The position numbers and the translations under genes are program-made. Shown in pieces: positions 678 to 26,629 of a stretch of 38,941 bases of DNA. Numbering within the stretch: the first letter of the stretch is position 1; every line of letters starts with the position of its first letter. Source of the stretch: Nocardioides sp. (GTDB lineage Bacteria; Actinomycetota; Actinomycetes; Propionibacteriales; Nocardioidaceae); assembly GCA_041581495.1 (NCBI GenBank), contig JBFIDC010000001.1, forward strand, positions 1 through 38,941. The letters are read 5' to 3'. The notes beneath the pieces were generated by a model that ran no database searches, was not told the origin of the DNA, and saw only the letters and a list, made by a program, of their open reading frames with translations.

Positions 678-722
678 TGTCGCACTACGGGACATCATCG
701 GGCACTCCTGGTTCCCTACCGT
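678..722 (+). promoter_or_regulatory. Activator box TGTCGCA-CTA-CGGGACA (678-694), 22 nt, -10 TACCGT (717-722)
   Basis: Read directly. The ATG at 730 lies 7 nt after the -10, consistent with a leaderless mRNA. Confidence 0.75.
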
Positions 723-729
723 CAGTGCC

Positions 730-1512
730 ATGCAGTCTCGAACGGCTCTTGTCACCGGTGGCGCACAGGGATTGGGTCTCGCGATCGGGGGCCGGCTGGT
801 CAGTGATGGCTTCGATGTCGTCCTAGCCGACGTCGATGGGGAGGCCGTGCTCGAGGCCGCGGATCTCATCGGAGCGACCGGGGTGCGGATGGACGTGACC
901 GACGATGCGGCGGTGGCATCGGTCTTCGCCGAATTGCCAGACGGCCAACTGGACGTGCTGGTCAACAACGCGGGGATCATCAGTCGACAACCAGCATCAG
1001 AGTTCGACTCCGTGCAGTGGGATCGGGAGATGGCAGTCAACCTGGGCGGCGCGATGCGCTGCAGCCGGGCCGCCTTTGAAATGCTGACGGCTTCAGCGAA
1101 TCCTTCGGTTCTCAATCTAGCCTCCGTCGGCTCCACCTTCGGGCTGCCTCAGCGTCTGGGCTACAGCACGACCAAGGCCGGGGTGCTTGGGCTGACCCGC
1201 ACCCTCGCCGCAGAGTGGGGCCCTCATGGCATCAGGGTCAATGCAATCGCTCCGGGGTATGTCGAAACGCAAATGATGCGCTCAGGCTTCGCCACGGGAG
1301 CGCTCGACGAGAGCCGACTGCTCGACCGGACGCCCTTGGGTCGCTTCGGGACCGCTGATGAGATCGCTGCGGCGGCGTCGTTCCTTGCCTCTGCCGATGC
1401 ATCATTTGTCACTGGCATCGTCTTGAAGGTCGATGGCGGGATCACCATCGACGGCAGCTTTCATGCCCGCCCGCATCCGGCGGGATCCCTGTCTCGGACT
1501 GACCCGATCTGA
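730..1512 (+). CDS. Short-chain dehydrogenase/reductase (SDR)
   Basis: [12 protein letters not shown] and YSTTK motifs. Start moved from 619 to the ATG at 730. Confidence 0.9.
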   Translation: MQSRTALVTGGAQGLGLAIGGRLVSDGFDVVLADVDGEAVLEAADLIGATGVRMDVTDDAAVASVFAELPDGQLDVLVNNAGIISRQPASEFDSVQWDREMAVNLGGAMRCSRAAFEMLTASANPSVLNLASVGSTFGLPQRLGYSTTKAGVLGLTRTLAAEWGPHGIRVNAIAPGYVETQMMRSGFATGALDESRLLDRTPLGRFGTADEIAAAASFLASADASFVTGIVLKVDGGITIDGSFHARPHPAGSLSRTDPI

Positions 1513-1544
1513 CACAGGAGCGGGGCTGCCTTCCGACTTAGGTT
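1500..1544 (+). promoter_or_regulatory. Activator box TGACCCG-ATC-TGACACA (1500-1516), 22 nt, -10 TAGGTT (1539-1544)
   Basis: Read directly. It overlaps the SDR stop codon, and an extra half-site TGTCTCG sits at 1490-1496. Confidence 0.7.
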
Positions 1545-1592
1545 CGCGACCATCAGCGGCGGTCCGCGCCGTGGTCAACCGGGAGGTTCCCC

Positions 1593-2456
1593 ATGAAGGT
1601 GGGCATCTACGTCTTCGCAACTGATCTCGACATGGACCCTGGTCCCTTGGCGAAGGAGATAGAGGACCGGGGCTTCGCCAGCATGTTCTTCCCCGAGCAC
1701 AGCCACATCCCGGTCTCTCGAGAAACGGACTATCCCGATTCTTACGGCGGTGGAGTACTACCGGACTTCTACAAGCGGACCTATGACCCGTTCATCTCCT
1801 GCAGCTTTGCCGCAGCGGCGACTACGAGCCTCCAGGTAGGCACCGGGATCGCCCTGCTCGCGCTGCGCGACGCGGTCCACACCGCCAAGATGGCTGCTTC
1901 GATCGACCGCCTCAGCGGAGGCCGCTTTGCGCTCGGTGTTGGGTTCGGCTGGAACCAGGATGAGTTTGAGACACACGGTGTGGAGTGGAAGACGCGGCAC
2001 CGCAAGGTCCGAGAGCAGGTCGAGTTGATGCGGGTGATGTGGACCGAGGACATCGCCTCCTACGACGGGGATCTCCTCCACCTCCAGCCAAGTTGGTGTT
2101 GGCCCAAGCCCGTGCAGAAGCCGGGACCGCCGGTCTACCTGGGTGGCTCTGGTCCGGTCACGATGAAGCACGCCGCCCAATGGGCCGATGTGTGGTACCC
2201 GACGCCACCCATGCAAGACCCGTTCCTGGAGGAGTCGATCCCGCGATTCAAGCAAATGCTGGTCGAGGCCGGCCGCGATCCCGAGTCGGTGCCCGTCGGG
2301 TGCGCACCCGGGGTCTGTGATGCCGCGGGCCTTGAGGCCTACGCCCGCAACGGGGTGTCCCACGTCAACATCGCGCTGGTCGAAGACACCCCAGACCTGA
2401 TGCTGAAGCGACTCGACGAGATGGCCGCGATGCGCGTCGCAGTTTTGGGTGCCTGA
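1593..2456 (+). CDS. LLM-class, probably F420-dependent oxidoreductase (Rv2161c-like)
   Basis: EHSHIP, YDPF, GTGI and LGVGFGWNQDEF motifs; GGGAGG RBS. Confidence 0.85.
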   Translation: MKVGIYVFATDLDMDPGPLAKEIEDRGFASMFFPEHSHIPVSRETDYPDSYGGGVLPDFYKRTYDPFISCSFAAAATTSLQVGTGIALLALRDAVHTAKMAASIDRLSGGRFALGVGFGWNQDEFETHGVEWKTRHRKVREQVELMRVMWTEDIASYDGDLLHLQPSWCWPKPVQKPGPPVYLGGSGPVTMKHAAQWADVWYPTPPMQDPFLEESIPRFKQMLVEAGRDPESVPVGCAPGVCDAAGLEAYARNGVSHVNIALVEDTPDLMLKRLDEMAAMRVAVLGA

Positions 2457-2514
2457 CGGTGACGGGTTGTCGTGACCGAATCGTGTCTTTTGCTTCCTCC
2501 GTCTCAGTGACCCA

Positions 2515-2559
2515 TGTCTCAAAGCGACACAGCCTCAAGGGGGTTCTCATTCCTAGGTT
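2515..2559 (+). promoter_or_regulatory. Activator box TGTCTCA-AAG-CGACACA (2515-2531), 22 nt, -10 TAGGTT (2554-2559)
   Basis: Read directly, upstream of the ABC operon. Extra half-site CGTCTCA at 2500-2506. Confidence 0.7.
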
Positions 2560-2606
2560 TTCGAGCACACCCACAGAACCGATGAGAGCCGAAGGGGGCC
2601 GAGTCC

Positions 2607-3677
2607 ATGACGATGATCGCTGAAACCCCGACCGACCGCTCGGTCGCATTGGGCCGTCGGCCGCTAAGGCTCCCGGGCCAGGGAATCATTCTGGCCAACC
2701 TTGCGCTGGTCCTGATCGGGTTGCTCGTCCTCGACGTACACCTCTTCAGCAGAGCCAGCCTGTCGACTCTGACCCCGACTATCGGCGTGATGATCCTGAT
2801 GGCCCTCGGCCAAGCGTTCATCATCGGCACCGGCGGCATCGACCTGAGCATCCCGTCAACGACCACGCTGGTCGGTGCGATCGTGCTCAAGGAGGCGGGC
2901 GGCGACAACAGCGCCGTGCTCGGCTCGATCGTGCTCGCCTTGCTGGTCTGTCTCGGCATCGGGCTGGCCAACGGTCTGCTGGTGGAGGTCACGCGTCTCG
3001 ACGCGCTGGTGGTGACCCTGGCTACCGGGCAACTGATTGCCGGAATCACCCGCATCTATCGGGGGCCGGTGCTGTCGATCTCAACGGTGCCCTCCGACCT
3101 CTCCGACTTCGCGCGCAGTTCGGTCGGGCACGTCAGCATCATCCTCATCTTGGCCGTGGCGGTCGCGACTCTGATAGCGCTCTGGATGCGCTTCCACACC
3201 TCGGGACGTCGACTCGCGGCCAGCAGCGTGGCTCGACCAGCCGCCGAGAACAGCGGCCTCTCCGCCGCCCGTCAGCGCATCACCGCCTGGATGGTCGGCA
3301 CTCTCATCGTCGGTGTCGGAGCCGTCCTGCTCGCTGGACGCATCTCCACTCCCGACCTCAGTTTGGGTCAGCCGTACCTGCTGACTCCGATCGTCGCCGT
3401 GGTCCTCGGGGGTGCCGCCCTTTCGGGTGGCCGCGTCCGTCCCGCTGCGACCGTGTTCGGCGCGGTCTTCCTCGTCGTGCTCGAGCACATCCTTCGGGTG
3501 CGCGGCTACTCCTCCGGAGTATCGCTCGCCTTCCAGGGCCTCGTCCTCGGGGTCGGGCTCACCCTCGTCGTCGTCTCGAAGCACCTCCGCTGGTCGGTGG
3601 TCTCCGCGCGACGTGGTGGCAACGCCAGTGACCGGTCCACCTCGGACCCGGTCGTGAACCAAGAGAACCAGGAGTAA
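2607..3677 (+). CDS. Sugar (CUT2/RbsC-type) ABC transporter permease
   Basis: Hydrophobic helices; GGIDLS, vTLAT and AVVLGGAALSGG motifs. Confidence 0.9.
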   Translation: MTMIAETPTDRSVALGRRPLRLPGQGIILANLALVLIGLLVLDVHLFSRASLSTLTPTIGVMILMALGQAFIIGTGGIDLSIPSTTTLVGAIVLKEAGGDNSAVLGSIVLALLVCLGIGLANGLLVEVTRLDALVVTLATGQLIAGITRIYRGPVLSISTVPSDLSDFARSSVGHVSIILILAVAVATLIALWMRFHTSGRRLAASSVARPAAENSGLSAARQRITAWMVGTLIVGVGAVLLAGRISTPDLSLGQPYLLTPIVAVVLGGAALSGGRVRPAATVFGAVFLVVLEHILRVRGYSSGVSLAFQGLVLGVGLTLVVVSKHLRWSVVSARRGGNASDRSTSDPVVNQENQE

Positions 3678-3681
3678 AGCA

Positions 3682-4974
3682 ATGGGCAACCTCATGCGCC
3701 GTCAAGGCGGCCTACGACGCGGGAGGAGGTCCGCGCTCGCGGTCGGCTTCACCGCCCTCTTGTTGGGGATCACCGCTTGCGGGTCCGACGACACCACCGG
3801 AAGCGGTGGTGGCGGTGGCGACAACGCCTCCGGCGACAGCATCGTCGACCTCAGCACGATCACCGACGACCAGGCTCAAGAGATGACCGACCGGGCCTTC
3901 GGGACCACCGATGTCAGCCTGGACAGTCTGGATAGCACCGTTCAGGAAGCGCTGCGTCGCGCGTCGATCGAGTTGGACGCCGCGCAGCAGGACAAGGCCT
4001 TCGAGTGCTGGCAGAACACCACCTGCACGATCGGTGATGGCGACATCACGCTCGGCATTGCCGATGGCTTCGGTGGCAACCTCTGGCGCAAGACGGCCAA
4101 GATGGAGATCATCCTGCAGGCGCTGACCTACCCGAGCATCGGCAAGATCATCTTCACCGACGCCAACGCCGACTTGCCGACGTTCCTCTCCAACGTGCGC
4201 AGCCTGTCTTCACAGGGAGCCACCGCGATCGTCAGCTACAACGACTTCGGTGCCGCGGCACTGCCGGCCTTCAAGGCCGCACAGGCGGCGGGCGCGAAGA
4301 TCTCGACGTACGTCGGTCCCACGCCCGATGCACCTGCTGACTCGCTGTCCAACCAGATCACTGGCGACGTGTGTTCGATGGGTGAAGAGATGGGCAAGGT
4401 GGCCACCGACGACCTCGGTCTGACCGGCGACCTGGCAATCCTGAACGGCACTCCCGGCAACCCGCAGGGTGCTGCTTGGAACAAGTGCCTGATCGACACT
4501 CTCCCGGCCGGCACTCAGGTCGCTCAGTCGGTCGACACCGACTGGACCTTGGCCGGCGCATTTGACGCTGGCTCGGCGCTGGTCAGCTCCGGCAAGGACT
4601 TCGGTGCGGTCTTCTATGACTACGCCGACCCGATCCCGCAGGTGGTTGAGGCCTACAGCAAGGGTGGCAAGCAGATCCCTGCCATCGTCACCTGGACCTC
4701 AAACAACGGTATGGCCAAGGTTTGGGAAGAACGACTCGGCACTCCCGATGAGTTCGCGCTTTTCCACACCAACGCTCTGACCTGGGAGAGCCGGGCCTCA
4801 GTCACCGCAGTCATGAGTGAACTGGCAGGCAACACCGTCGAGCCCGTCGTGATCGTGCCCCGCCCCTTCGTCCAGGCAGAGAAGGGCTACTACCTGTCCG
4901 ACCGCCCCGACGACTACCCGGGTCCCAGTGCGCTCATCCCCGATGAGCTCATGACCCGCATGCTCGCCGGCTGA
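3682..4974 (+). CDS. ABC substrate-binding lipoprotein (sugar-binding-like)
   Basis: Basic N-region, hydrophobic stretch and lipobox ITAC, then a Gly/Ser linker. Lies between the permease and the ATPase. Confidence 0.85.
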   Translation: MGNLMRRQGGLRRGRRSALAVGFTALLLGITACGSDDTTGSGGGGGDNASGDSIVDLSTITDDQAQEMTDRAFGTTDVSLDSLDSTVQEALRRASIELDAAQQDKAFECWQNTTCTIGDGDITLGIADGFGGNLWRKTAKMEIILQALTYPSIGKIIFTDANADLPTFLSNVRSLSSQGATAIVSYNDFGAAALPAFKAAQAAGAKISTYVGPTPDAPADSLSNQITGDVCSMGEEMGKVATDDLGLTGDLAILNGTPGNPQGAAWNKCLIDTLPAGTQVAQSVDTDWTLAGAFDAGSALVSSGKDFGAVFYDYADPIPQVVEAYSKGGKQIPAIVTWTSNNGMAKVWEERLGTPDEFALFHTNALTWESRASVTAVMSELAGNTVEPVVIVPRPFVQAEKGYYLSDRPDDYPGPSALIPDELMTRMLAG

Positions 4975-4988
4975 CCGGACGACCACTC

Positions 4989-5028
4989 CCGGTCGGGGGT
5001 GGGGGCAGACGTCCTCACCCCCGACCGG
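4989..5028 (+). terminator. 18-bp GC stem-loop between the binding-protein gene and the ATPase gene
   Basis: CCGGTCGGGGGTGGGGGC-AGAC-GTCCTCACCCCCGACCGG, with two G-U pairs and no U-tract. Confidence 0.65.
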
Positions 5029-5065
5029 CCCCAATTCACTGCTAGCCAGCCTGATGTGACGAGAG

Positions 5066-7663
5066 GTGCCGACCGTGGCCGACCACACCCCCACAGCCGT
5101 GCGCGACCGCGAGACGGTCGGACCCAGCGGCTCCCTGCTCCTCTCGGCGTCCGGTCTCTCCAAGCGGTATGGCGCCGTTCAGGCCCTCGATGATGTGAGT
5201 CTGGACCTGGCCCCTGGCGAGATCCACGCCTTGGTCGGTGAGAACGGATCCGGCAAGTCCACCTTGGTCGGCATCGTCAGCGGAACCGTTGTCAAAGACC
5301 AGGGCCGCCTCACCATCGGCGGCGACATCGTGTCCGCGGCGCGCCCCGCCGTTTCTCAAGGGCATGGCGCCATCACCGTGTTTCAAGACGGGTCGCTCAT
5401 CGATGACCTCACAGTGGCGCAGAACCTCTTCCTCGGGACTGACGGGGTCCATCGACCGAAGTTCTCCAAGATCGCCCACTGGGCAGAGGAGCTGCTCGGT
5501 GCCTACGGCTTCGACATCGACACGACCCTCAAGGCTTCAGCGCTCCCTCCCGGAGATCGCCAACTGGTCGAGATCGTCCGAGCGGTCGCGGCCGAACCCA
5601 GCGTCCTGATCCTCGATGAAGCCACGTCCGCTCTGGACTCCGAGGGCGTGGACATCGTGCTCGAACTCATGCGGCGCGTCGCAGCCAAAGGCAGCGCCGT
5701 TCTCTTCGTCACCCATCGACTCTCCGAAGTGATGCGGGTCGCGCATCGCGTCACGGTCCTTCGCGACGGCCAGTTTCAAGGCACCCACGACGCTGCGCAG
5801 ACCACCCCGCACAAACTCGTCGAACTCATGGCCGGCACCCGGGTCGACCTCGAATTCCCCGAGCGTGGGGACGACGACGGTCAAGCGGTGTTGACCGCCA
5901 GCGGCCTGCACGGCTACGGCTTCGGTCCCGTCGACGCCGAGCTTCGCGGCGGGCAGATCGTGGGCATCGCGGGCGCCGATGGCAACGGTCAGTTGCCCTT
6001 CCTCAAGGGGCTCGCCGGGATCGGTGACAACGGTGGCGCGGTCGAGGTCGGCGGCAAGCGGCTGAAGTCCTATGGCGCCGCGGTCGACGCAGGCGTCGTC
6101 TATCTGAGTTCGGACCGCAAGACTGAGTCTTTGTTCGGCGGACTGACCGTGGGCGACAACATCGGCCTTGGAGTTCTCGACACGCTCTCCATCGGCGGGC
6201 TGATGCGCGTCGGTCGCGAGAAGGCATTCGTCGGTCAGGCCATCGACCAATACGGAATCCGGGTCAACCACCCCGGCCAGTTGCCGACGGAACTCTCCGG
6301 TGGCAACCAGCAGAAGGTGGCGCTGGCGAGAGTGCTGGCGATGAAGCCCAAGATCGTGCTCATCGACGAGCCAACGCAGGGCGTCGACGTGCGGTCCCGC
6401 CTAGATATCTACCGCTTCCTGCGTGCCATCGCCGACAGCGGCAGTGCCGTGGTGGTCGTCAGCTCCGATGCCTCGGAGCTCGCCGGGCTGTGCGACCGCA
6501 TCCTGGTGATGAGCCGCGGCACGGTCACCGCTGAGCTCGTGGGAGCCTCGGCCACCGAGGAGTCGATCGTCGGCGCGTTCGCCGTCGAACACGAACTCGC
6601 CGGTGGAACTGAAGCCCACAGTGCCGAGACAGCAACGGACAGCACTGCGGCCCCGCGCCGGGCGCGCCGCCAGTCCTGGCTTCGTCGCTCGGTCTCGGCT
6701 GACGGCATCCGGCTCGCAGCCCTGGTCGGACTGATGGTGCTTCTGGCGCTGTTCGCTCAATCCAAGAACGACACCTTCCTCACCCAGCCCAGCCTCTATA
6801 ACGTCGCGCTGCTCGCGCTGCCGCTGATCGCGGTGGCGTCGGCCCAATACTTCGTGCTCCTCGTCGGAGGTATCGATGTCTCCGTCGGCGCGGTCATGAC
6901 CTTGTCGCTAATCCTGATGTCCGAGTGGGCCGGGACCGGTGGTGCTGCCAAGGTGCTACTAATCGGCCTACTCGTCTCGCTGCTGCTCGGCGTCACCGTC
7001 GGCGGTGTGAACGCACTGCTGGTGGAGAAGGTCGGCATCTCGCCGGTGATCGCGACGATCGCGACGCTCGGAGTCGTCTCCGGCATCGGCTACATCATGC
7101 GGCCGACCGCGGACGGCCTGATCTCCGCCTCGTTGGCCGAGCAGTTGATGTTCCGCAAGGTTGGCCCGATTCCGATTGCGTTGATCGTCCTGGTGGCCCT
7201 GCTGGTGGTGGCGGATGCCTGGTTCCGGCGCACCGGCTCCGGCCTGCGGCTGCGCGCCGTGGGACTCAACGGGCTGTACGCCACCCGCTTGGGCATTCCC
7301 GCGGCCCGGCTGCGCACCCTCTGCTATGTGCTGTGCGCATCGATCGCTGGTCTCGCGGGTGTCATCCTGGCTGCGCAGGTAGGCATCGGTGACCCGAATG
7401 CCGGCAACTCGTTCACTCTGCTCGCCATCGCCGCACCAGTCCTCGGTGGTGCCGCCCTCTCCGGTGGGCACGGCTCGTTAGTGGGTGCTGCGATCGGCGC
7501 CGGCATCTTGGTGCTCAGTCAAAGTCTCGTCGCCGTCTTGGCCTTGGACAACGGTGCCAGCTTCGTCTTCGCCGGCGTCCTCACCCTCTTTGCCCTGCTC
7601 AGTTCGGGTGAGAGTCTCGCGCGGCTGCGTCGCCTCATGGGCCAGCGGTTCGCGCGTTCCTGA
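5066..7663 (+). CDS. Fused sugar ABC double-domain ATPase (RbsA-like) plus C-terminal permease
   Basis: GENGSGKST, LILDEATS, LSGGNQQK and LIDEPTQGVD, followed by an RbsC-like membrane domain (GGIDVS, APVLGGAALSGG). Confidence 0.9.
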   Translation: MPTVADHTPTAVRDRETVGPSGSLLLSASGLSKRYGAVQALDDVSLDLAPGEIHALVGENGSGKSTLVGIVSGTVVKDQGRLTIGGDIVSAARPAVSQGHGAITVFQDGSLIDDLTVAQNLFLGTDGVHRPKFSKIAHWAEELLGAYGFDIDTTLKASALPPGDRQLVEIVRAVAAEPSVLILDEATSALDSEGVDIVLELMRRVAAKGSAVLFVTHRLSEVMRVAHRVTVLRDGQFQGTHDAAQTTPHKLVELMAGTRVDLEFPERGDDDGQAVLTASGLHGYGFGPVDAELRGGQIVGIAGADGNGQLPFLKGLAGIGDNGGAVEVGGKRLKSYGAAVDAGVVYLSSDRKTESLFGGLTVGDNIGLGVLDTLSIGGLMRVGREKAFVGQAIDQYGIRVNHPGQLPTELSGGNQQKVALARVLAMKPKIVLIDEPTQGVDVRSRLDIYRFLRAIADSGSAVVVVSSDASELAGLCDRILVMSRGTVTAELVGASATEESIVGAFAVEHELAGGTEAHSAETATDSTAAPRRARRQSWLRRSVSADGIRLAALVGLMVLLALFAQSKNDTFLTQPSLYNVALLALPLIAVASAQYFVLLVGGIDVSVGAVMTLSLILMSEWAGTGGAAKVLLIGLLVSLLLGVTVGGVNALLVEKVGISPVIATIATLGVVSGIGYIMRPTADGLISASLAEQLMFRKVGPIPIALIVLVALLVVADAWFRRTGSGLRLRAVGLNGLYATRLGIPAARLRTLCYVLCASIAGLAGVILAAQVGIGDPNAGNSFTLLAIAAPVLGGAALSGGHGSLVGAAIGAGILVLSQSLVAVLALDNGASFVFAGVLTLFALLSSGESLARLRRLMGQRFARS

Positions 7664-7692
7664 TCCCATCCGACGCACGGAAGAAGGACCCC

Positions 7693-8451
7693 ATGGGCAA
7701 ACTCACCGCACGCATGGCCGTGATCACCGGCGCCGCCTCGGGTATCGGACTGGCCTCCGCCCGACGCTTCGCTGCCGAGGGCGCCACGGTGGTGCTCTGG
7801 GACCGCGACGCCGAATCGCTCGCGCTCGCGGTGAAGACTGTGGAGGCCGACGGCGGCTCGGCGTTCGGCGTCGAAGCGGACGTCTCTGATCTGGCGTCGG
7901 TCCAGGCCGCGGCCGGGCGCACGCTTGACCTGGTCGGCAACGTGACGGTGCTGATGAACAACGCGGGCGTGCTCGATGACTACGCCCCGATCCTGGAGAC
8001 CGACGAGGACCTCTGGGGCAGGATCATCGGCATCAATCTGACCGGTGTCTATCGGGTGACCAAGGCCCTGCTGCCCTCGATGCTCGAGGCGGGAGGCGGC
8101 ACCATCGTCAACACCTGCTCTATCGCGGGCCTGGTCGCCGGTGGTGGCGGCACTGCCTACACCGCCTCCAAACACGGCGTCCTGGGCCTGACTCGCCAAC
8201 TCGCCTTCGACTACGGCCAGCAGGGCATCCGGGTCAACTGCATCTGCCCGGGCGCCGTCGAGACCGGGATGACCAAGGCCCTCTTTGAAGCCGGCGACGC
8301 CGACGTCATGGACTCGGTCAACAGCGTCCCCGCGGGCCGCTTCGCCCAACCCGACGAACTCGCCAACCTCGCCCTCTTCCTTGCCAGCGAGGACTCCTCC
8401 TTCTCCCACGGCGCACACTTTGTCGCCGACGGAGGCTGGACGATCCGCTAG
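7693..8451 (+). CDS. SDR oxidoreductase (secondary alcohol/ketone dehydrogenase-like)
   Basis: TGAASGIG, NNAG and YTASK motifs; GAAGGA RBS. Confidence 0.9.
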   Translation: MGKLTARMAVITGAASGIGLASARRFAAEGATVVLWDRDAESLALAVKTVEADGGSAFGVEADVSDLASVQAAAGRTLDLVGNVTVLMNNAGVLDDYAPILETDEDLWGRIIGINLTGVYRVTKALLPSMLEAGGGTIVNTCSIAGLVAGGGGTAYTASKHGVLGLTRQLAFDYGQQGIRVNCICPGAVETGMTKALFEAGDADVMDSVNSVPAGRFAQPDELANLALFLASEDSSFSHGAHFVADGGWTIR

Positions 8452-8457
8452 ACCCGC

Positions 8458-8526
8458 GTGGTCGAGACGCCTGCGGACTTGTCAGCAAGCCTCAAGCGCA
8501 GGCACATCACGATAGATCTCGACCAC
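8458..8526. repeat. Nested inverted repeat at the convergent SDR / DUF222 junction
   Basis: GTGGTCGAGA (8458-8467) pairs with TCTCGACCAC (8517-8526); inner pairs are GCCTGCG/CGCAGGC and CTTG/CAAG. Confidence 0.5.
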
Positions 8527-9792
8527 CAGTGGCCTCGGCAACTCACTTGTCGGTGCGCCGATTGGGACGCGCCGGGTGCCGGTGTGGTCGACCAGGTAGT
8601 AGCCGTCGTGGGCATCGCGCCAGACATAGATGCCCGGAAAGGGTTGCCTGACGTCCATCGGACCGTGGGTCTTGATCCGGTGGTGCCGGGTGCTCATCGG
8701 CCCGTAGTTGCCCACCCCGCTGACACCGCCCTGCTCATGGGGAACGGTGTGGTCGACCTGCATGGTGCGAGACAGGCTCGAGGAGAAGGGGTAGGTGTCG
8801 GCCGGCGTCATCAGACGCACGGCCTGTCTATGTCGATCGGGGATCTCATAGGCATCGACCGGCGCCTGACCCTCGAGATCGAGGACCGGGGTGATCTTGA
8901 ACTTCGCCTGCGGCCCCAGCACGCTGCGCACCCACGCCTCGGTCACCGGACCGTGGCCCTCGAGGCGCATCACTTCGTGGGTGCCAGCGTAGGTGTGGAC
9001 GTAGAGGTGCACGGGCGGCAGCAGGTCGTGGATCGGGGTGTCGTCGGGCTTGCCGGGGTTGCCCAGCAGGAGCAGCGCGGCATGGACCCGGCGGGCGTCT
9101 TGATCCAGGTCGGGCAGCACGTCGCGCAGGTGGCGCTCCTTGGCATCGACAGCCGCGGCGATCTGGTCGATGGTCGCGACGTCGGCGCGGATGAGGTAGC
9201 TGGCCATCCCGTTGGCCTCCTCGCGGCACTTCTTGGCGAACCTCGCCTGAGCGGCCTGCTCCTCCCTGGCGCGAGCGGCAGCGGGCGCGGCTTGGGCGAC
9301 CTTGGCCTCCACCAGTGCCTCGAACCGCGACCATGGGATCCGACCATCGGCCGACTCGGCCACGGCCGCATCGACGAACATCGCCTCGTCCTTGGACAGG
9401 TTGCGGGTCTTGGCGACGACGTGGCGGGCGTAGGAGAGTCGGACCTCGCCGGCCTCGATCCGGCCCCGAAGGCTGGGGTGGCGGTGGTGCAGGTCCAGCG
9501 CGTCGGCCATCAGCGCCGCGGCGGCGTATACCGATCGCCCGATCCGCGCCCCCAACTCCGCGGCGGCGAACTCGGTCACCTCGGGCGTGCCCTCGCCGCC
9601 ATACATCCGCGACTTCTCACGCCCCGGCTTGCCCACCTCATCGGCACGAAGCCGCGCCGGGTGGTGGATCACCGCCCACTGGTAGGCGATCCGCAGCAGG
9701 TCGTTCTCGCGTTCGCGGATCTCTTCAGCGCGCTGACCGGCGAGGGCGAGGAGGTCACCCTCGCCCATCTCTGCCAGCGCCGTGGTGGTCAT
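8482..9792 (-). CDS. DUF222 / 13E12-repeat-family protein with C-terminal HNH-like domain
   Basis: GGEGTPEVTEFAAAELGA..DALDLHHRHP N-terminal signature and VDHTVP..GNYGPM..HHRIKTHG HNH-like segment. Confidence 0.85.
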   Translation of the reverse strand: MTTTALAEMGEGDLLALAGQRAEEIRERENDLLRIAYQWAVIHHPARLRADEVGKPGREKSRMYGGEGTPEVTEFAAAELGARIGRSVYAAAALMADALDLHHRHPSLRGRIEAGEVRLSYARHVVAKTRNLSKDEAMFVDAAVAESADGRIPWSRFEALVEAKVAQAAPAAARAREEQAAQARFAKKCREEANGMASYLIRADVATIDQIAAAVDAKERHLRDVLPDLDQDARRVHAALLLLGNPGKPDDTPIHDLLPPVHLYVHTYAGTHEVMRLEGHGPVTEAWVRSVLGPQAKFKITPVLDLEGQAPVDAYEIPDRHRQAVRLMTPADTYPFSSSLSRTMQVDHTVPHEQGGVSGVGNYGPMSTRHHRIKTHGPMDVRQPFPGIYVWRDAHDGYYLVDHTGTRRVPIGAPTSELPRPLVVEIYRDVPALEAC

Positions 9793-9798
9793 GAATCA

Positions 9799-9821
9799 AG
9801 CCAACACGAGCCCACCGACAA
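9799..9821 (-). promoter_or_regulatory. RecA-NDp / PafBC-like promoter of the DUF222 gene
   Basis: Minus strand reads TTGTCGGTGGGCTCGTG-TTGGCT-TGATTC-ATG. This matches TGTCGG-N10-TANNNT with one mismatch, and the ATG is 6 nt downstream. Confidence 0.6.
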
Positions 9822-9854
9822 GACGGTCCCAGGTCGGGGGTTCTGTCTCAGCAT

Positions 9855-9870
9855 TCGAACACTTGATCGA
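9855..9870. promoter_or_regulatory. LexA (SOS) box-like site
   Basis: TCGAAC-ACTT-GATCGA, one mismatch to the actinobacterial consensus TCGAAC-N4-GTTCGA. Confidence 0.6.
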
Positions 9871-9938
9871 AAATAGTCCTGATGGGACTTGGCCCTGACG
9901 TAGTCGGAGCTGTCGTGGGGGTGGGGGAACGGCGTGGT

Positions 9939-10304
9939 TCAATCCAGTGGAGCGTCAACCCAGCCGACCAACCGGCTACCAATTCCCAGGGGCTCTTCTC
10001 GATGGTGACCGGGCAGCGGAGGCGGTAGGTCGGAGTGCTGGTGGGAGTCGCAACTGACGTAAGTGAACGTCGGCCACCATTTCTTCGGCCGGGCTTTCTC
10101 AGCGAACCCGCAGACGTTGCACACCAGTTCGACCCAAACTAGCTTCTTGCCGATGCGGTTGGCGCGGGACTGAACCAGCCAGGGCGGCGGGCTGTTCTCG
10201 ATCTCATCCAACTGGGCTTCGGTGAGCTTCGTAGGCAGGCCGTGCCGGCTGGCCATCTCCACGGGGATGTTCAAGCGTTGGGCAGCCTCGCGTCGGGTGA
10301 ACAT
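9939..10304 (-). CDS. Hypothetical protein, HTH-like N-terminus plus CxxC...CxxH putative Zn site
   Basis: MFTRREAAQRLNIP.. start, CNVC and CDSH. The ATG at 10304 is preferred over the TTG at 10313. Confidence 0.65.
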   Translation of the reverse strand: MFTRREAAQRLNIPVEMASRHGLPTKLTEAQLDEIENSPPPWLVQSRANRIGKKLVWVELVCNVCGFAEKARPKKWWPTFTYVSCDSHQHSDLPPPLPGHHREEPLGIGSRLVGWVDAPLD

Positions 10305-10632
10305 CGCGCTCAACGATAGTCAGTGCGGGCTAGAGGACATCCTTCTGAGTTGCCACCCGTACACAGGTCTGGGGACCGCGGCTGACGAACGAATGCAGAG
10401 TTCGACCTCGTGCAAAGGCGCTGCACCCGTCGCGGGAATGCGACGCACACGCGGTGGAATGGGCGCCTGGTGCGTCGACGGACGTACCGAACGCCGCGTC
10501 CCGGCCTCATCGCAGGCGGGCGGTCGGAGCGAGGAGCGTCGATAGGTACGTCGGTCGGCGCCCATGCCGCCCCACTGAGTCAATCTGGCCGGAAGGACGC
10601 GGACCCGCCCCAGTACCTCCAGCAGGCGAAGC

Positions 10633-11055: not shown

Positions 11056-11066
11056 GACGAATCAGT

Positions 11067-11855
11067 TCACTCGTAGCAGTACGGCGCGTGCTGGTTTTCG
11101 GCCCAGTCGTCAGGGTCGTGGGTGATCCACACAGTGGCCTCCTCGGCTTCGGCGATCCGTTTGATCCGGCGCAGCGAATCCAAGGCGACGCGGGTGTCCC
11201 AGTCGATCGGGAAGTGGTACTCCAACTCGAGTGCGGAGCGCAGGTGCACGGCGTCACCGGTGAGCAGGAACGTACGCGAGGCCAGTCGAACCTTCAGGCT
11301 CAGCTCGCCCGGGGTGTGACCGGGCATCGAGAGCAGCACAAGGCTGCCGTCGCCGAAGAGGTCGAGGTCGCAGCCGGGCACCTCGCGCCAGTCGTAGCCC
11401 TTGGTCCGCTCCAATTGGTCGGGCATGTAGCAGAACGCTCCGATAGGAGCCGGGAAGCGTGCGAACGCCATCTCGCCGCCACCGATGTAGTGCTTGGCCT
11501 CTGGGAAGAGGTGAACGCCGCCTGCGTGGTCGAAGTGGAAGTGCGAGGTGATCACGTGGGTCACGTCAGAGGTCTTGTAGCCCAGAGCCTCGACCTGCTT
11601 GTCGACCGCCTGGTCCGGGGTGCCGCCGATGCCGAGACCGTCGGCCAACTCCTGGCCATACATCCCGACCGGGTCGGTGATCGCCTCCGGCGCGATGCCG
11701 GTGTCAAAGAGCACGAGGCCTCGCGGATGCTCGATCAGGAACGACGGCATTGGGATGGTGACCATCCCCGAGAGGCCATACATCAGGCTGTTGGAGTCGA
11801 CGGTGAGTGTCGGGCAGTCCAACGCCCACATCTTGCGTGCAAATCCCAGGGACAT
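11067..11855 (-). CDS. Metallo-beta-lactamase-fold lactonase (AHL-lactonase family)
   Basis: LFDTG, SHFHFDHAGG (HxHxDH), PGHTPG, TGDA and C-terminal THD motifs. Confidence 0.9.
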   Translation of the reverse strand: MSLGFARKMWALDCPTLTVDSNSLMYGLSGMVTIPMPSFLIEHPRGLVLFDTGIAPEAITDPVGMYGQELADGLGIGGTPDQAVDKQVEALGYKTSDVTHVITSHFHFDHAGGVHLFPEAKHYIGGGEMAFARFPAPIGAFCYMPDQLERTKGYDWREVPGCDLDLFGDGSLVLLSMPGHTPGELSLKVRLASRTFLLTGDAVHLRSALELEYHFPIDWDTRVALDSLRRIKRIAEAEEATVWITHDPDDWAENQHAPYCYE

Positions 11856-11888: not shown

Positions 11889-11990
11889 ACCGTGCTCCCG
11901 CCGAGGGGGCAAACGCCGTCCCACTTTGCGACAGGGCCGGGACACTGTCGCAAACTCGCACACTCCCGACGACTCGGCCGGGCATTGACT
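11889..11990. promoter_or_regulatory. Back-to-back activator-box promoters for the lactonase (-) and the Zn-ADH operon (+)
   Basis: Minus strand: TGTCGCA-AAG-TGGGACG (11933-11917), 22 nt, CACGGT (11894-11889). Plus strand: TGTCGCA-AAC-TCGCACA (11946-11962), 22 nt, TTGACT (11985-11990), with the ATG 6 nt later. Confidence 0.75.
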
Positions 11991-19752: not shown

Positions 19753-19794
19753 GGGCGTCACGAGGCCGGGTGAGTTCTGGCAGGGCAGTTCGTT

Positions 19795-20874: not shown

Positions 20875-20875
20875 G

Positions 20876-21862: not shown

Positions 21863-22698
21863 CGGTTGCTCTCCAGTTCTTCCATGAAGTCGCCCCATTC
21901 GTCGTCGCTGACGCGCACGAAGTGCGCGCGCGGCCGGGCCATGATCGTGGGCACCCCGAAGCCCGGGGTGGTCCGTAGCACGATGGCCTTCGGGCGGCCG
22001 TCCTGTTCGCGAGATGCAGCCAGTGCGTCGGTGAGTTGTTGCATGTCGTTGCCATTGACCTCGCGGGTATCCCAACCGAAGGCGCGCAGCTTGTCGGCGA
22101 CCGGCTCGATGGCCACGGTGACCGGGCCGTCGGCTTGGATGCCGTTGCAGTCGACCAGGGCGACGAGGTTGTCGACGCCGAAGGTTGCACCGCTCATCAA
22201 GGCCTCCCAGGTTGAGCCCTCGTCGAGTTCCCCATCGGAGAACTCACAGAAGACCCGGGCTGGGGATCCGTCGAGCCGGAGCCCGAGCGCCATGCCGACG
22301 GCTTGACCGAGGCCTTGACCGAGTGAACCGCCCACGATGTCGATGCCGGGCGTGATATCGAAGGTGCTCATTGGCAGCCGCGAGCCGTTGAGCCCGTAGG
22401 TGGGCAGTTCGTCCTCGTCGAGGTACCCGCTGGCCGCGAGCACCGCGTACATGGCGATCGAGTAGTGGCCGGTGGAGAGCAGGAAGCGGTCTCGAGCCGC
22501 CCACGCCGGGTTCGCTGGATCGTGGCGCAGTTCGTGGAAGTAGAGGGCCGCCAACGTGTCGGCGATGCCCAGGCCTTGGGCGAGGTAGCCCTCACCCTTC
22601 CCGCGCGTCATCTCCATCATCAGCCGACGGAGTTGGTGCGCATGGTCCTTCAAGTCGGCTACGTCTGCGGTTTCTGGTGGGGCAAGAGTGGCGGGCAT
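21859..22698 (-). CDS. Split transketolase, N-terminal ThDP-binding subunit
   Basis: RDRFLLSTGH, GSLGQGL and SDGELDEGSTWEA...DCN motifs. Start at 22698. Confidence 0.88.
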   Translation of the reverse strand: MPATLAPPETADVADLKDHAHQLRRLMMEMTRGKGEGYLAQGLGIADTLAALYFHELRHDPANPAWAARDRFLLSTGHYSIAMYAVLAASGYLDEDELPTYGLNGSRLPMSTFDITPGIDIVGGSLGQGLGQAVGMALGLRLDGSPARVFCEFSDGELDEGSTWEALMSGATFGVDNLVALVDCNGIQADGPVTVAIEPVADKLRAFGWDTREVNGNDMQQLTDALAASREQDGRPKAIVLRTTPGFGVPTIMARPRAHFVRVSDDEWGDFMEELESNR

Positions 22699-22704
22699 GC
22701 TGCC

Positions 22705-22749
22705 AGCCTCACGTGCACAGGGCCGATGTCGTTGTCCCAACTTGCGACA
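22705..22749 (-). promoter_or_regulatory. Activator box TGTCGCA-AGT-TGGGACA (22749-22733), 22 nt, -10 GAGGCT (22710-22705)
   Basis: Read directly. The ATG at 22698 is 6 nt downstream with no room for an RBS. Confidence 0.75.
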
Positions 22750-22765
22750 AGGGTCGGGAGGTTGC

Positions 22766-24583
22766 CTAGAAGTACTGCTTGTCGGGGTCGATTCGATACG
22801 CCTGGAGCTTTCGATAGAGCGTTGAGCGCGAGATGCCGATGGATTGCGCTGCCGCAACCTTGTTGCCGTGATGCTGCTTAAGGGCAGTCAGGATTGCCCC
22901 GAGCTCGAGCTCTTCCATGGCCGAGAGGGTTCGTTTGCGTGAGTTGCCTTGGAGTTCGACTGGCAAGGCGTCCGGGCCGATCTCGGGACCGATGCAGGCC
23001 GAGAGCACTCCCCGGATCGTGGTGTCGAGTTGTCGCAGGTTGCCGGGCCATGGTGCGCGCATCAGGCAGCGCAGAGTTGCTGACGCGAAGTGGAGTTGAC
23101 GCTCGCCGCGGTGCTTCTCGAGCATCGCGGCAGCGGTCGGTGCGATGTCCTCGTGCCGGTCGCGCAGAGGCGGGAGGCTCACTCGGCCGACGCCGATGGT
23201 GTCGACGAGGCGTCGGAGCGAATGGCTGGGCTCGCCACCACCGGTCGTGAGAGTGGCCACGATGCGGGGGAGCCGCGGGTCGTCTTCGTCGTCAGGTTCC
23301 AGCAAGCTGGCGGTAGCCGCCGCGGCCTCGGGTGTCAGTTGCTCGATGTGCCTCAGGAGTACGGCCTCGGGACCGGACTCGAGAGCCGCCCGAAGCTTGT
23401 TGACGAAGTGAGTCGCCTCCTCCGCCCATCCTGTTGCTGACGCGTCCAGGATCAGCGTGTCCGCTTCGGGAACAGCCGCAGCAGCAAGCACCGCCTTGGC
23501 CAGGGCGAACTTCCCGACTCCAGACTCGCCTTCGACGATCATCGGGACCCCCCTTGCGGCGAGGCGGGTCGCATGCGCGATTGCCGTCACCAGGGCGGGA
23601 CTCTGACCGGGCAAGATCACCGTGGGGTGCGGCAAGGTCGCATCGGGCGCTCCGACCTGGTCATGCGTTGGTCGCCCGATCTCGAACTCCACCACCGCTC
23701 CGATGACGGTCCCGTCACGTTCGACCGGGTGGCAGTGGGCGATCCGGAAGCGGCCACCCGTGGGAAGGCCGGATTGCGCCCCGTCCCCCCGAGAACCCAT
23801 CGCAACACTGCGGACGTACTCCCACAACATGGCCCGGTCGATGCCTTCGAGCAGGTCGGTGACCTTGGGTCCGGCGATGAAGATGTCTTGACCGACGGCA
23901 GCCATGGGTGCGCGACGCGAGCCAATCGCAACGAGGTAGGCGTCGAGAAGTTGGCGTTCGCTGGTCGTGGCCTGGGCTAGCAGTCGACTCTCGACCTCTT
24001 GGGCCGTGCTGGTCATCAACGGCGTCAGGAGTGCGTTGCCGGATGTCGCCCGGCACGAGAGCGTGATGACGCCTTCGAGCCTGCGAGTCACCGGATGATG
24101 GACCGGCACGCCAACACAGGTGAAAGGCCTCAGGGCCTCGGCAAGGTGCTCGGGGCCGCTGACCTGGATGGCTGCGTTCGTCTCGATCACGCTGCCGCAG
24201 CCGTTGGTGCCGATGGATTCCTCGCTGTTGTCGAAGCCCATGTTGGCGTTGATCCGGTCAAACATTGGTGCGATCGAGCGATCCGGGGTCCACCGATGCA
24301 CCAAGGTCGCCTCGTGATCGGCAAGGAGAACACCTGCCTCCAGCCCGGCCAACTGCTCTGCCAGCCGAGACAGCACGGGGTCGGCGGCGAGTCGAAGCGC
24401 CGCACGCGCGTGGTGCTCGCCACGGAACGTCAGTGTCGGGTTGGCGAGTTGGGCGCCGCTGCGAAGCGACCGCCGCCAGGACTGCAGCACCTGTGGCCGG
24501 ACCTGCTTCTCCAGATGGCGGGGGATCACGCCGTCGGCGAGCAGGTGCTCGCGTGCGGCGTCGACCAGCTTTAACTCGCCCAC
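22766..24583 (-). CDS. GAF-AAA(degenerate)-Fis HTH transcriptional activator (AcoR-like), paralog 2
   Basis: SWRRS, E.SIGTNG, GESGVGK, PPLRDR, WPGNLRQL and GISRSTLYRKL motifs. GTG at 24583 follows GGAGG; the ORF-track start at 24904 overlaps the upstream gene. Confidence 0.9.
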   Translation of the reverse strand: MGELKLVDAAREHLLADGVIPRHLEKQVRPQVLQSWRRSLRSGAQLANPTLTFRGEHHARAALRLAADPVLSRLAEQLAGLEAGVLLADHEATLVHRWTPDRSIAPMFDRINANMGFDNSEESIGTNGCGSVIETNAAIQVSGPEHLAEALRPFTCVGVPVHHPVTRRLEGVITLSCRATSGNALLTPLMTSTAQEVESRLLAQATTSERQLLDAYLVAIGSRRAPMAAVGQDIFIAGPKVTDLLEGIDRAMLWEYVRSVAMGSRGDGAQSGLPTGGRFRIAHCHPVERDGTVIGAVVEFEIGRPTHDQVGAPDATLPHPTVILPGQSPALVTAIAHATRLAARGVPMIVEGESGVGKFALAKAVLAAAAVPEADTLILDASATGWAEEATHFVNKLRAALESGPEAVLLRHIEQLTPEAAAATASLLEPDDEDDPRLPRIVATLTTGGGEPSHSLRRLVDTIGVGRVSLPPLRDRHEDIAPTAAAMLEKHRGERQLHFASATLRCLMRAPWPGNLRQLDTTIRGVLSACIGPEIGPDALPVELQGNSRKRTLSAMEELELGAILTALKQHHGNKVAAAQSIGISRSTLYRKLQAYRIDPDKQYF

Positions 24584-24600
24584 TGGGACTGGCCTCCGAC

Positions 24601-26400
24601 TCAGAAGTACTGCTTGTCGGGGTCCAGACGGTAGGCCTGGAGTTTGCGATAGAGAGTCGAGCGCGAGATTCCGATTGATTGGGCAGCCGCCACCTTGTTG
24701 CCGTTGTGCTGTCGCAGCGCGGTGAGAATTGCCCCGAGTTCCAACTCCTCCATCGCCGAGAGGTCGCGTTTGCGGGAGTTGCCCTGGAGTTCTAGGGGCA
24801 GGGCGTCGGGACGGATCTCCGGACCGATGGCCGTGGGCAGCAGTCCTCGAACCGTGGCGTCCATCTGTCGCACGTTGCCCGGCCAGGGTGCGCGCATCAA
24901 ACAACGAAGCGTTGCCGAAGCAAAGTAGAGCTCCCGGTCACCGCGGTGCTTCTCTAGCAGCGCAATAGCCGTGGGTGCGATGTCTTCTTGTCGATCGCGC
25001 AGCGGCGGCAGCGTGATCCGGCCGACTCCGATCGTGTCAATCAGGCGGCGCAGTCCGGGGGCATCGGGCCCGCCGGTGGTCATCGTTGCCACGATCCGTG
25101 GTGTGTTGGGCAGCTCTTCGATGCCGTCGAGCATGGCGGAGGTGGCGGCCGCAGCCTCGGGCGAAAGCGCCTCGAGGTGGCGCAACACCAGCGCATCGGG
25201 CTCGAGTTCGAACTCGCGGCGCAGCAGGCTGACGAACTGGTTGGCCCCTTCGGCCCAACCGGCGGCGGCATCCACGACGGCGATCTTGTCGGCCTTGACC
25301 TGAGCCGATGCGAGCACCGCCCGCGCCAGTGCGAACTTGCCCACGCCGGACTCGCCTTCGATGAGCATCGGCACCCCCTTGGCGGCCAGCCGGGTCGCGT
25401 GGGTGAGGGCGTTGGCTAGCGCAGGGCTCTTGCCGGGCAGTGACACGGTGGCTTTGGGCAGGGTGGCGGTGCGCGGTTCCTCGCGCACTTGACGATCGAC
25501 ATCGAACTCAATGAGGGCGCCGATGACGCGGCCCTCCCGGTCGACCGGCTTGCAGCCGACGATCCGGAACCGGTCTGTGTTGAGCCCGATCTCACCCGGC
25601 GTCGTCGCGGAGCCGAGCGCCACGCCGCGGACGTACTCCCAAAGCATGGCGCGGTCGATGCCTTCGAGGAGGTCGGTCACCTTGGGGCCGGCGATGAAGA
25701 TGTCTTGGCCCACGGCTGCCACCGGAGCCCGGCGCGAGCCGATTGCCACGAGGTACTCATCGAGGAGTTGTCGCTCGTTGGTCGAGGCTTGGGCCAGCAG
25801 CCGACTCTCGACCTCTTGGGCAGTGCTTGTCATCAACGGGGTGAGCAGCGGGTTGCTGGAGGTGGCCTGACAATTCATTGTGATGACGCCTTCGAGCCGT
25901 CGCGTGATGGGGTGGTGCACGGGCACGCCGACGCAGGTGAAGGGCCGCAGAGCCTCGGCCAGGTGCTCGGGCCCTGAGATTTGGATTGCCGCCCCAGACT
26001 CGATCACGGACCCGACGCCGTTGGTCCCGATCGTTTCCTCGCTGATGCAAAAGCCCACATTGGAATTGATGCGGTCCATCAACGGGAGGATGCCCGAATC
26101 TGATACCCATCGTCGGACGACTATGGACTCGTGATCGCAGAGCAGCACGCCGGCATCCAAACCAGCCAGCCCTTCGGCTAGGCGCGAAAGGACAGGGTCC
26201 GCGGCCAGCCTGAGTGCCGCGCGAGCGTGGTGCTCGCCGCTGAAGGTCAGCGCGGGGTTTGCCAACTCAGCCCCAGACGAGACCGACCGTCGCCACGACT
26301 CCAGAACGTCGGGGCGCATGTCCTTTGCCAAGTGGGCTGGAACATCGCCGCCACTGAGCAGGTGCTCGCGGGCTTGGTCAACGACGTGCAATGCCGTCAT
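24601..26400 (-). CDS. GAF-AAA(degenerate)-Fis HTH transcriptional activator (AcoR-like), paralog 1
   Basis: Same motif set and colinear with the neighbouring gene; GGAGG RBS. Confidence 0.9.
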   Translation of the reverse strand: MTALHVVDQAREHLLSGGDVPAHLAKDMRPDVLESWRRSVSSGAELANPALTFSGEHHARAALRLAADPVLSRLAEGLAGLDAGVLLCDHESIVVRRWVSDSGILPLMDRINSNVGFCISEETIGTNGVGSVIESGAAIQISGPEHLAEALRPFTCVGVPVHHPITRRLEGVITMNCQATSSNPLLTPLMTSTAQEVESRLLAQASTNERQLLDEYLVAIGSRRAPVAAVGQDIFIAGPKVTDLLEGIDRAMLWEYVRGVALGSATTPGEIGLNTDRFRIVGCKPVDREGRVIGALIEFDVDRQVREEPRTATLPKATVSLPGKSPALANALTHATRLAAKGVPMLIEGESGVGKFALARAVLASAQVKADKIAVVDAAAGWAEGANQFVSLLRREFELEPDALVLRHLEALSPEAAAATSAMLDGIEELPNTPRIVATMTTGGPDAPGLRRLIDTIGVGRITLPPLRDRQEDIAPTAIALLEKHRGDRELYFASATLRCLMRAPWPGNVRQMDATVRGLLPTAIGPEIRPDALPLELQGNSRKRDLSAMEELELGAILTALRQHNGNKVAAAQSIGISRSTLYRKLQAYRLDPDKQYF

Positions 26401-26458
26401 GGTCTACCTCCGGTTCCCCCCGAGGAGTCACAGTTCAGGGTCCTGTGACGCGTGTTAC

Positions 26459-26505
26459 ACAGTAGCCCCTGCCTTAGAGGCACCTCACTGTGCCGATTTG
26501 GGACA
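26459..26505 (-). promoter_or_regulatory. Activator box TGTCCCA-AAT-CGGCACA (26505-26489), 24 nt, -10 TACTGT; probable autoregulatory site
   Basis: Read directly. The spacing differs by 2 nt from the other seven sites. Confidence 0.55.
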
Positions 26506-26584
26506 CATCGCCTGCGGTCCGCGCCGCCCGGGGCGGACCTCTGCCGTTGCGAGGCTGACGGTGTCTCACGCGCCGTCGCACGCT

Positions 26585-26629
26585 CGTCCCGAAATGGGAC
26601 AACTTATTGCGCCGGCTTCTCACCACGAT
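26585..26629 (+). promoter_or_regulatory. Activator box CGTCCCG-AAA-TGGGACA (26585-26601), 22 nt, -10 CACGAT (26624-26629)
   Basis: Read directly, upstream of the BVMO gene. Extra half-site TGTCTCA at 26562-26568. Confidence 0.75.

Follow-up and report, generated by a model that had tools for sequence, protein, structure and literature searches.

The closest described relatives of the system reported here are found beside the prmABCD genes. In Rhodococcus BCP1 a palindrome overlapping the prmA -35 region has already been noticed and linked to the adjacent Fis-family gene (Cappelletti 2015, PMC4428276); the accessible part of this source treats one promoter, likens the site to that of E. coli Fis, and gives no spacing rule, binding test or mechanism. 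Regulators of prm type are listed as 'sequence analysis only' in a 2022 review (PMC8784404), the accessible part of which also records an acoR-like gene before hmoCAB, with no site. E. coli DhaR and TyrR and R. capsulatus HupR are atypical, sigma70-dependent enhancer-binding proteins (EBPs) that have lost the GAFTGA motif, and the accessible part of PMC3162934 describes no fixed -43 rule for them. Vibrio cholerae VpsR, an NtrC-like protein with neither GAFTGA nor the Walker B DE pair, has a footprint from -31 to -52 at PvpsL, works with sigma70 and has been proposed to be a class II activator (Hsieh 2018, PMC6158489). AcoR of B. subtilis and B. thuringiensis is a GAF-containing sigma54 EBP (PMC4428206). 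Here we analyse 38,941 nucleotides of Nocardioides sp. DNA (GenBank assembly GCA_041581495.1, contig JBFIDC010000001.1; hereafter "the window"), in which eight copies of a 17-bp palindrome ("the box") accompany a gene cluster encoding two paralogous regulators, A and B, with a Fis helix-turn-helix (HTH). The regulon is real and previously undescribed. Our reading, to which we give a probability of about 75%, is that inducer-bound regulator dimers centred at -43 would activate sigma70-family RNA polymerase as class II activators, with no ATP hydrolysis.

A first-pass annotation of the window had claimed the eight boxes, and all of them are present in its letters (Table 1; for minus-strand boxes that annotation gave the 5' ends). 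They conform to a 7-3-7 palindrome, YGTCNCA-N3-TGNGACR. The seven spacers of exactly 22 nt between a box and a -10 hexamer, claimed at the same time, are likewise all there with the hexamers as quoted. For the eighth box, which faces the gene of regulator B (regB), the 24 nt to TACTGT are present as described, and its geometry differs from that of the other seven: among 12 genomes the regB box is never at 22, and is at 23 in four and at 24 in five. A genome-wide box search with a test for spacing enrichment, which the same annotation had proposed, found the boxes to be local and their shared offset to be far above chance. Among the window promoters, a hexamer with T at -7 plus T at -12 or A at -11 occurs at a background of 12 in 378 offsets. 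Its presence at one offset in 7/7 cases has a probability of about 2e-9 after correction for 55 offsets, a value that is overstated because the rule was fitted to the same hexamers. In 20,000 random draws of seven sites a common offset was never obtained. The eight sites of the window are the eight best matrix matches of the genome, a circular result as the matrix was trained on these sites; with a matrix retrained on the window and its orthologs, the remaining 2.98 Mb of the genome hold only nine weaker matches (score at least 13). One of these nine, on contig C223, has a -10-like hexamer at 22.

A TTGACA-like -35 element, sought at 16-18 nt, reached at best four of six positions (transketolase, TK) and at most two at the other promoters. 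Four promoter classes keep a non-consensus -10: that of the alcohol dehydrogenase (ADH) gene is without A-11 (T in 11 of 12 genomes), and those of the lactonase, TK and Baeyer-Villiger monooxygenase (BVMO) genes are without T-12. The promoters of the first short-chain dehydrogenase (SDR1), the LLM oxidoreductase and the ABC importer carry a full TAnnnT. The weak -10 hexamers and the lack of a TTGACA-like -35 fit activator-dependent promoters.

Using the regulator as query, we found 11 orthologous clusters (74-83% protein identity) in Nocardioides, Blastococcus and other Actinomycetota. Boxes face the orthologs of SDR1 in 9/10, LLM in 9/10 and ABC in 10/10 cases, and those of the lactonase, ADH, TK, BVMO and regB in 11/11 each; Blastococcus SDR1 comes after the BVMO gene and has no box of its own, and one ADH box (L107) below the cut-off was added by hand. 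Several orthologs also have a box at the 3' end of SDR1, where in the window the TGA stop codon of this gene forms part of the right half-site of box 2. At offset 22, nAnnnT is present for 59 of the 72 non-regB ortholog boxes, compared with 5 at the next-best offset, and two or more of T-12, A-11 and T-7 for 69 of the 72, compared with 9. The exceptions are an LLM box at 24, a TK box at 21 and the ADH box that was added by hand. With the window included, 76 of 79 boxes have a spacer of 22. Mean pairwise identity is 0.86-0.99 for the box and 0.62-0.83 for the hexamer, against 0.37-0.44 for the spacer, which is the background level. This argues that selection acts on the length of the spacer and not on its sequence. 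Boxes gather at the regulator locus in every ortholog genome. Two of the orthologous clusters (L020, L025) have a single regulator and still keep their boxes, so that one protein is likely to be enough; the second regulator may add an inducer.

The same proteins might instead bind the box as repressors, covering the -35 region until an inducer releases them. The box ends at -35 and thus overlaps the polymerase footprint, the full TAnnnT elements of SDR1, LLM and ABC could work alone, and NtrX, another atypical EBP, has been described as a repressor (PMC6158489). Repressor sites, however, are rarely in phase to the exact base as these 76 of 79 boxes are, the boxes that serve two directions (see below) keep phase on both sides, and a weak -10 is conserved in four promoter classes; we consider repression unlikely. 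MimR, which we take to be M. smegmatis MSMEG_1970 and a member of this regulator family, is reportedly a positive regulator.

For activation, the position of the box relative to the start of transcription is critical. The box had been placed near -43, abutting -35, in front of housekeeping-type -10 elements, and two lines of evidence back this placement. The first is provided by leaderless start codons. ATG or GTG lies 6-7 nt past the hexamer at SDR1 in 10/10, at TK in 12/12 (one with a 21-nt spacer) and at ADH in 9/12 genomes; in the window these starts are at 730, 22698 and 11997, respectively, and family matches begin near these codons. In Actinobacteria, leaderless housekeeping promoters have TAnnnT 6-7 nt ahead of the ATG. 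Across the 5,670 candidate starts of this genome, TAnnnT precedes ATG 116 times at 6 nt, 77 times at 7 nt, 26 and 15 times at 8 and 9 nt, and one to five times at other distances. The hexamers of the window match this signal, which points to target promoters of sigma70 type. With +1 set at the ATG, the box spans -51 to -35 or -52 to -36 and is centred at -43 or -44, i.e. in fixed phase, abutting -35 and within the range of about -41 to -44 that characterises class II sites; it is this position that suggests class II activation.

The second line comes from prmA. In BCP1 the prmA start is a C that lies 7 bp past TTGTAT, with the TTG codon 55 bp further on (Cappelletti 2015, PMC4428276). A search of 301 genomes with the published -35/-10 pair gave mostly chance matches, from which six recurring ones were picked, four at prmA and two elsewhere. 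The four prmA promoters reproduce the published BCP1 elements at 55-57 bp from the start codon, and in each of them CGTCTCA-CAT-TGAGACA, or a form of it that differs by one base, lies 21 nt ahead of TTGTAT, at -51 to -35. Regulators encoded beside these four prmA genes were recovered as homologs of ours at E<=1e-25; they share the helix type with our regulators, and their loci share the box. The Nocardioides proteins thus have both full-length homology and operator position in common with PrmR/MimR-like regulators, the prmABCD regulator of Rhodococcus BCP1 and MSMEG_1970 being taken as members of the same protein family, with the same box type at -51 to -35 of prmA. They differ in the spacer, which is 21 nt at prmA and 22 nt here, over seven promoters and with two paralogous regulators. 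The accessible part of the M. smegmatis start-site table lists no primary start for MSMEG_1970 or MSMEG_1971 (Martini 2019, PMC6448022).

A single box can apparently serve two directions. In seven orthologs a second SDR gene, absent from the window, diverges from SDR1, and in either direction from the single box 1 between them there follow a 22-nt spacer, nAnACT and a leaderless start. Among the three genomes without the divergent gene, the reverse hexamer is lost in the window and in L103, while L106 keeps CATTCT. In the distant cluster L169 one box lies at 22 nt on either side for an SDR and BVMO pair. The place of the divergent SDR gene is taken in the window by a sulfotransferase gene, with what seems to be a displaced GACT left over from the reverse -10.

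Regulators A and B, encoded in tandem, are the only Fis-HTH matches of the genome, both lie within this cluster, and both have the recognition helix ISRSTLYRKL. The top matches of the regulator fold model (mean pLDDT 81.8, pTM 0.44) are DhaR(N) and NtrC-family AAA/HTH structures; the best NCBIfam match is DhaR (NF008485), at 132 bits versus a curated cut-off of 551. Of the features of classical EBPs, the AAA fold, the C-terminal Fis HTH and Walker A are present. Alignment with an NtrC-family structure shows that GAFTGA is replaced by a GWAEGA loop with a deletion, and Walker B reads VLRH in both regulators, with RH in place of DE. Neither a GAFTGA-like loop nor a Walker B DE pair occurs in any family regulator sequence that we inspected. 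An EBP fold that has lost GAFTGA is the hallmark of the atypical sigma70-dependent EBPs. The first-pass annotation had seen no sigma54 -24/-12 element, and a loose scan agrees with it, giving four matches, all inside genes. The sigma54 DNA-binding domain (Sigma54_DBD, PF04552) was not found in the genome itself (92% complete) nor in 5/5 relatives tested, and the sigma54 system is absent from Actinobacteria (PMC3162934). The GAFTGA loop, the hhhhDE Walker B, and sigma54 with its -24/-12 promoters, which define a classical sigma54 EBP system, were thus not found here. A contig end truncates a second gene for an RpoD-type sigma factor, which is likely the principal sigma.

Across 72 homologs there is little or no variation in Walker A (GExGxGK) and in the WPGN sensor II motif, which would suit another kind of activation: an oligomer dependent on ATP binding, assembled on the box and half-sites, that contacts the alpha C-terminal domain (CTD) alone or remodels the promoter, possibly with RbpA or CarD. 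Fis at proP P2 acts from -41 through the alpha CTD, and accessory half-sites flank boxes 2, 3 and 7. Most TK and SDR1 boxes, by contrast, have no conserved second site, Walker B is without its acidic pair, and class II activators typically have sites that keep a strict phase and abut -35. We thus regard this route as improbable and prefer class II activation.

If the boxes are operators of this regulator family, they should be found beside its distant members. We examined 47 distant loci, with regulators mostly 27-45% identical to ours (8 of 32 plasmid matches, 4 prmA loci and 35 further regions). They contain 77 boxes in 812 kb, versus 9 in the 2.98 Mb elsewhere in our own genome. Of the 47 loci, 38 have a box, and in 33 a gene is faced by a box that has its -10-like hexamer at 21 or 22. 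For 116 gene-facing box/direction pairs, hexamers peak at 22 (40 pairs) and at 21 (22 pairs) over a background of about 6, and 36 non-facing pairs gave 3 and 8; the binomial values of 1e-22 and 1e-7 overstate the case, as the filter is a coarse one and the genomes are related to one another. Spacers of 22 nt are seen, for example, at a BVMO gene of Rhodococcus DMU1, at five promoters of R. ruber MSA14 and at a lactonase gene of Cnuibacter. On pMYCCH.01 of M. chubuense NBB4 (L126:9737-9781), the box TGTCCAA-TAG-TCGAACA lies 22 nt before GACAAT upstream of hmoC, about 350 nt 5' of its annotated start, and is a candidate operator/promoter of the copper hydrocarbon monooxygenase. These boxes and spacings are, as far as sequence can tell, evidence for a family-wide promoter rule. 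A pattern scan of 401 genomes across the class was too loose, many of its matches being near the control rate, and was discarded as evidence.

The usual box is missing from most loci in which the helix of the regulator reads SRTTLY. An unbiased palindrome search in these loci returned TGTYCAG-N3-CTGRACA, which is present in 5/6 SRTTLY loci and in 0/38 loci with the usual LYR/IYR-type helix; each of its seven copies is accompanied by a hexamer at 21 or 22. We consider this joint change of helix and box, with the geometry kept, to be the strongest sequence evidence for the identity of the presumed binder. Together with the co-occurrence of boxes and regulators it supports the earlier suggestion that the local Fis-HTH proteins bind the boxes, and the palindrome is likely the operator of both GAF-PAS-AAA-Fis regulators. 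The Fis-HTH genes might conceivably be mere neighbours, the palindrome being bound by the product of the nearby TetR gene or a global factor, or read as a -35 by an alternative sigma; such a TetR gene does exist in the window, and binding by the regulators is deduced from sequence. This we hold to be very unlikely: the boxes are concentrated at the regulator locus, accompany these regulators in several families of the class and differ where the recognition helix differs, and no above-threshold TetR match was found in the ortholog stretches, which cover part of each region. In the paralog clade of L193, L196 and L197, a conserved AGCGCAAGG directly adjoins the box on its regulator-distal side, and is possibly the site of a second factor or a sigma element.

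Several points weigh against class II activation by these proteins as a family rule. The case for this locus is made from sequence only. Promoters without a -35 are normal among the leaderless ones of this genome, and their occurrence here is thus a weak sign of activator dependence. Among the distant loci, 54 of the 116 facing pairs fall outside both peaks (the filter scores each box in both directions), no box reaches the cut-off in 9 of 47 loci, and the ABC-facing box of Cnuibacter and the carboxylase-facing box of RHA1 (at 23) have no hexamer at 21 or 22. Kinship of the genomes inflates the P-values, the window and its orthologs served to train the box matrix, and the SRTTLY loci to train the variant pattern. 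The SRTTLY loci may form a single clade, and their change of helix and box may be one evolutionary event. The spacer at prmA is 21 and not 22, and the comparison was made with the published BCP1 elements rather than with the BCP1 sequence.

In the mechanism that we propose, the GAF domain would bind a small inducer that is a carbonyl compound or an alcohol; a cyclic ketone, alcohol or diol is likely. The regulator dimer on the box would then sit over the -35 position. By way of sigma region 4, the alpha CTD or both, it would recruit or isomerise the polymerase, ATP hydrolysis being unneeded. Contacts with region 4 depend on DNA. The regulators' own promoter, off-register, would probably be autoregulated and gated by CRP. 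Box 8 is likely autoregulatory. In 12/12 genomes TGTAA-N6-TCACA is found at offset 27-29 of the regB promoter, in 10 of them with one mismatch to the CRP consensus, and one CRP-type HTH above the cut-off is encoded in the genome. A CRP-like site over the likely regB start and a CRP-type protein in the same genome make catabolite control of the regulator likely. In distant clades the regulator promoters have spacers of 20, 21 or 22. Several orthologs have GTNAC-N6-GTNAC repeats directly past the regB box, which we presume to be GlnR/MtrA-like.

The genes of the regulon suggest what is metabolised. Its BVMO resembles cyclohexanone monooxygenases, which are its top PDB matches. The other products include a metallo-lactonase, a Zn-ADH, an aldehyde dehydrogenase (ALDH) similar to succinate-semialdehyde dehydrogenases, CoA ligases, thiolases, SDRs and an F420 LLM oxidoreductase, as well as a sugar-type ABC importer, a split transketolase and an enzyme of the glycerol dehydrogenase family. 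By comparison with known chn pathways, this gene set reads as ring opening of cyclic alcohols and ketones to a dicarboxylate. The cluster would accordingly be a cyclohexanone-type catabolic regulon comprising import, oxidation, Baeyer-Villiger ring opening, lactone hydrolysis, CoA activation with beta-oxidation, and a transketolase branch. The importer and the transketolase suggest a hydroxylated substrate; the binding protein of the importer has no PDB match at E<=1e-8. A plasmid of Cnuibacter physcomitrellae (L128), from another order, carries ABC, lactonase, Zn-ADH, ALDH, CoA ligase, OB/thiolase and LLM genes with a regulator 32% identical to ours, which suggests that the cluster is mobile.

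Class II action by an atypical EBP has a precedent in VpsR, and by this analogy would not be a new kind of regulation. VpsR differs from the present regulators in having a receiver domain with c-di-GMP input and not GAF-PAS, in its different box, and in sites at varied distances, as far as the accessible part of its description goes (PMC6158489). Its host belongs to the Gammaproteobacteria, which also have sigma54. DhaR has the same GAF-PAS-AAA-HTH layout as regulators A and B; unlike them, it is switched by kinase subunits. AcoR, in the accessible part of PMC4428206, has a GAF-type sensor, a small carbonyl inducer and a Fis HTH in common with our regulators, but it keeps GAFTGA and activates a -24/-12 sigma54 promoter, whereas our box lies directly against -35, in a genome in which sigma54 was not found. 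For this regulator family we found no binding or spacing study in the open literature; subscription journals, or Figure S5 of PMC4428276, may hold one. The AcoR sites TGTCTC/GAGACA are similar to the box. We incline to the view that actinomycetes have turned a widespread AcoR/DhaR-like branch into ATPase-dead class II activators, with a 7-3-7 operator at -51 to -35, 21-22 nt before the -10, where the helix would set the operator and one dimer could fire two divergent, even leaderless, promoters.

If this is true, operators and start sites can be predicted for the regulators of prm/mim, of hmoCAB in NBB4 and of cyclic-ketone clusters, in a family whose genes are often annotated as 'sigma-54-dependent' although the phylum has no sigma54. 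With the operator at a fixed place and a code that links helix to box, the way in which these regulators work could be tested with short synthetic promoters. Regulons would become readable from sequence, and could provide compact inducible parts for biosensors in Rhodococcus, Mycolicibacterium and Nocardioides.

Table 1. Boxes, promoter elements and genes of the cluster, in coordinates of the window
Feature	Position	Strand	Remarks
Sulfotransferase-domain gene	1-621	-	cut by contig end; with ribosome-binding site
Box 1, TGTCGCA-CTA-CGGGACA	678..694	+	in sequence
-10 TACCGT	717..722	+	22 nt past box 1; SDR1 ATG 7 nt later at 730, leaderless
SDR1, short-chain dehydrogenase	730..1512	+	TGA stop within box 2
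Box 2	1500..1516	+	additional half-site TGTCTCG at 1490-1496
-10 TAGGTT, LLM gene	1539..1544	+	spacer 22
F420-dependent LLM oxidoreductase (TIGR03619)	1593-2456	+	family match
Box 3 with partly conserved upstream half-sites	2500..2531	+	box proper 2515-2531; CGTCTCA-G-TGACCCA at 2500-2514
-10 TAGGTT, sugar-type ABC importer and SDR2 operon	2554..2559	+	operon 2607-8451
Box 4	11917..11933	-	-10 CACGGT at 11889-11894
Box 4 targets: metallo-lactonase, Zn-ribbon gene	11067-11855 (lactonase)	-	family matches
Box 5, back to back with box 4	11946..11962	+	-10 TTGACT at 11985-11990
Box 5 targets: Zn-ADH, ALDH, AMP-ligase, thiolase/OB-fold, CoA ligase	to 19752	+	Zn-ADH with leaderless ATG 11997
Box 6	22733..22749	-	-10 GAGGCT at 22705-22710
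Box 6 targets: split transketolase, glycerol-dehydrogenase-family gene	22698 to 19795	-	leaderless ATG 22698
Regulator A (P0002), 605 aa	22766..24583	-	GAF-PAS-degenerate AAA-Fis HTH; GTG start picked with regulator B as reference
Regulator B (P0001), 599 aa	24601..26400	-	73-74% identical to regulator A
CRP-like site TGTAA-N6-TCACA	26444..26459	-	over likely regB -10/start
Box 8, off-register	26489..26505	-	TACTGT at 26459-26464, spacer 24
Box 7 with upstream half-sites	26562..26601	+	box 26585-26601; TGTCTCA 26562, CGTCGCA 26574
-10 CACGAT, BVMO gene	26624..26629	+	spacer 22
Cyclohexanone-monooxygenase-like BVMO	26676 to 28316	+	ATG 26676; ACAD/APH/SDR/thiolase genes downstream, to 33194
TetR gene	33198-34430		

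Past the cluster, an SNF2-family helicase gene (35288-37465, plus strand) has no upstream box. Between the ABC operon and the lactonase gene lie a DUF222 gene (8482-9792) and a DUF5997-like gene (9939-10313), both on the minus strand. They were unmatched in the ortholog regions with the queries used, of which the one at 8458 was an opposite-strand frame, and the stretch may therefore be an insertion.

Outside the ortholog clusters, an element TGTTACAGTGTGACACA was set aside as different from the box, having no hexamer at 22 (6 loci, including a near-variant). Followed by TGACGTC...CGTCACAAC, it occurs once per genome away from the cluster in L113, L114, L115, L116 and L122, with the near-variant in L117, and is likely the site of another regulator. 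Strong boxes were also seen on other contigs of two orthologous genomes (L120:2073-2142 and L121:2014), the distal L120 box having GAGGGT at 22; these are possibly remote members of the regulon or sites of a paralog.

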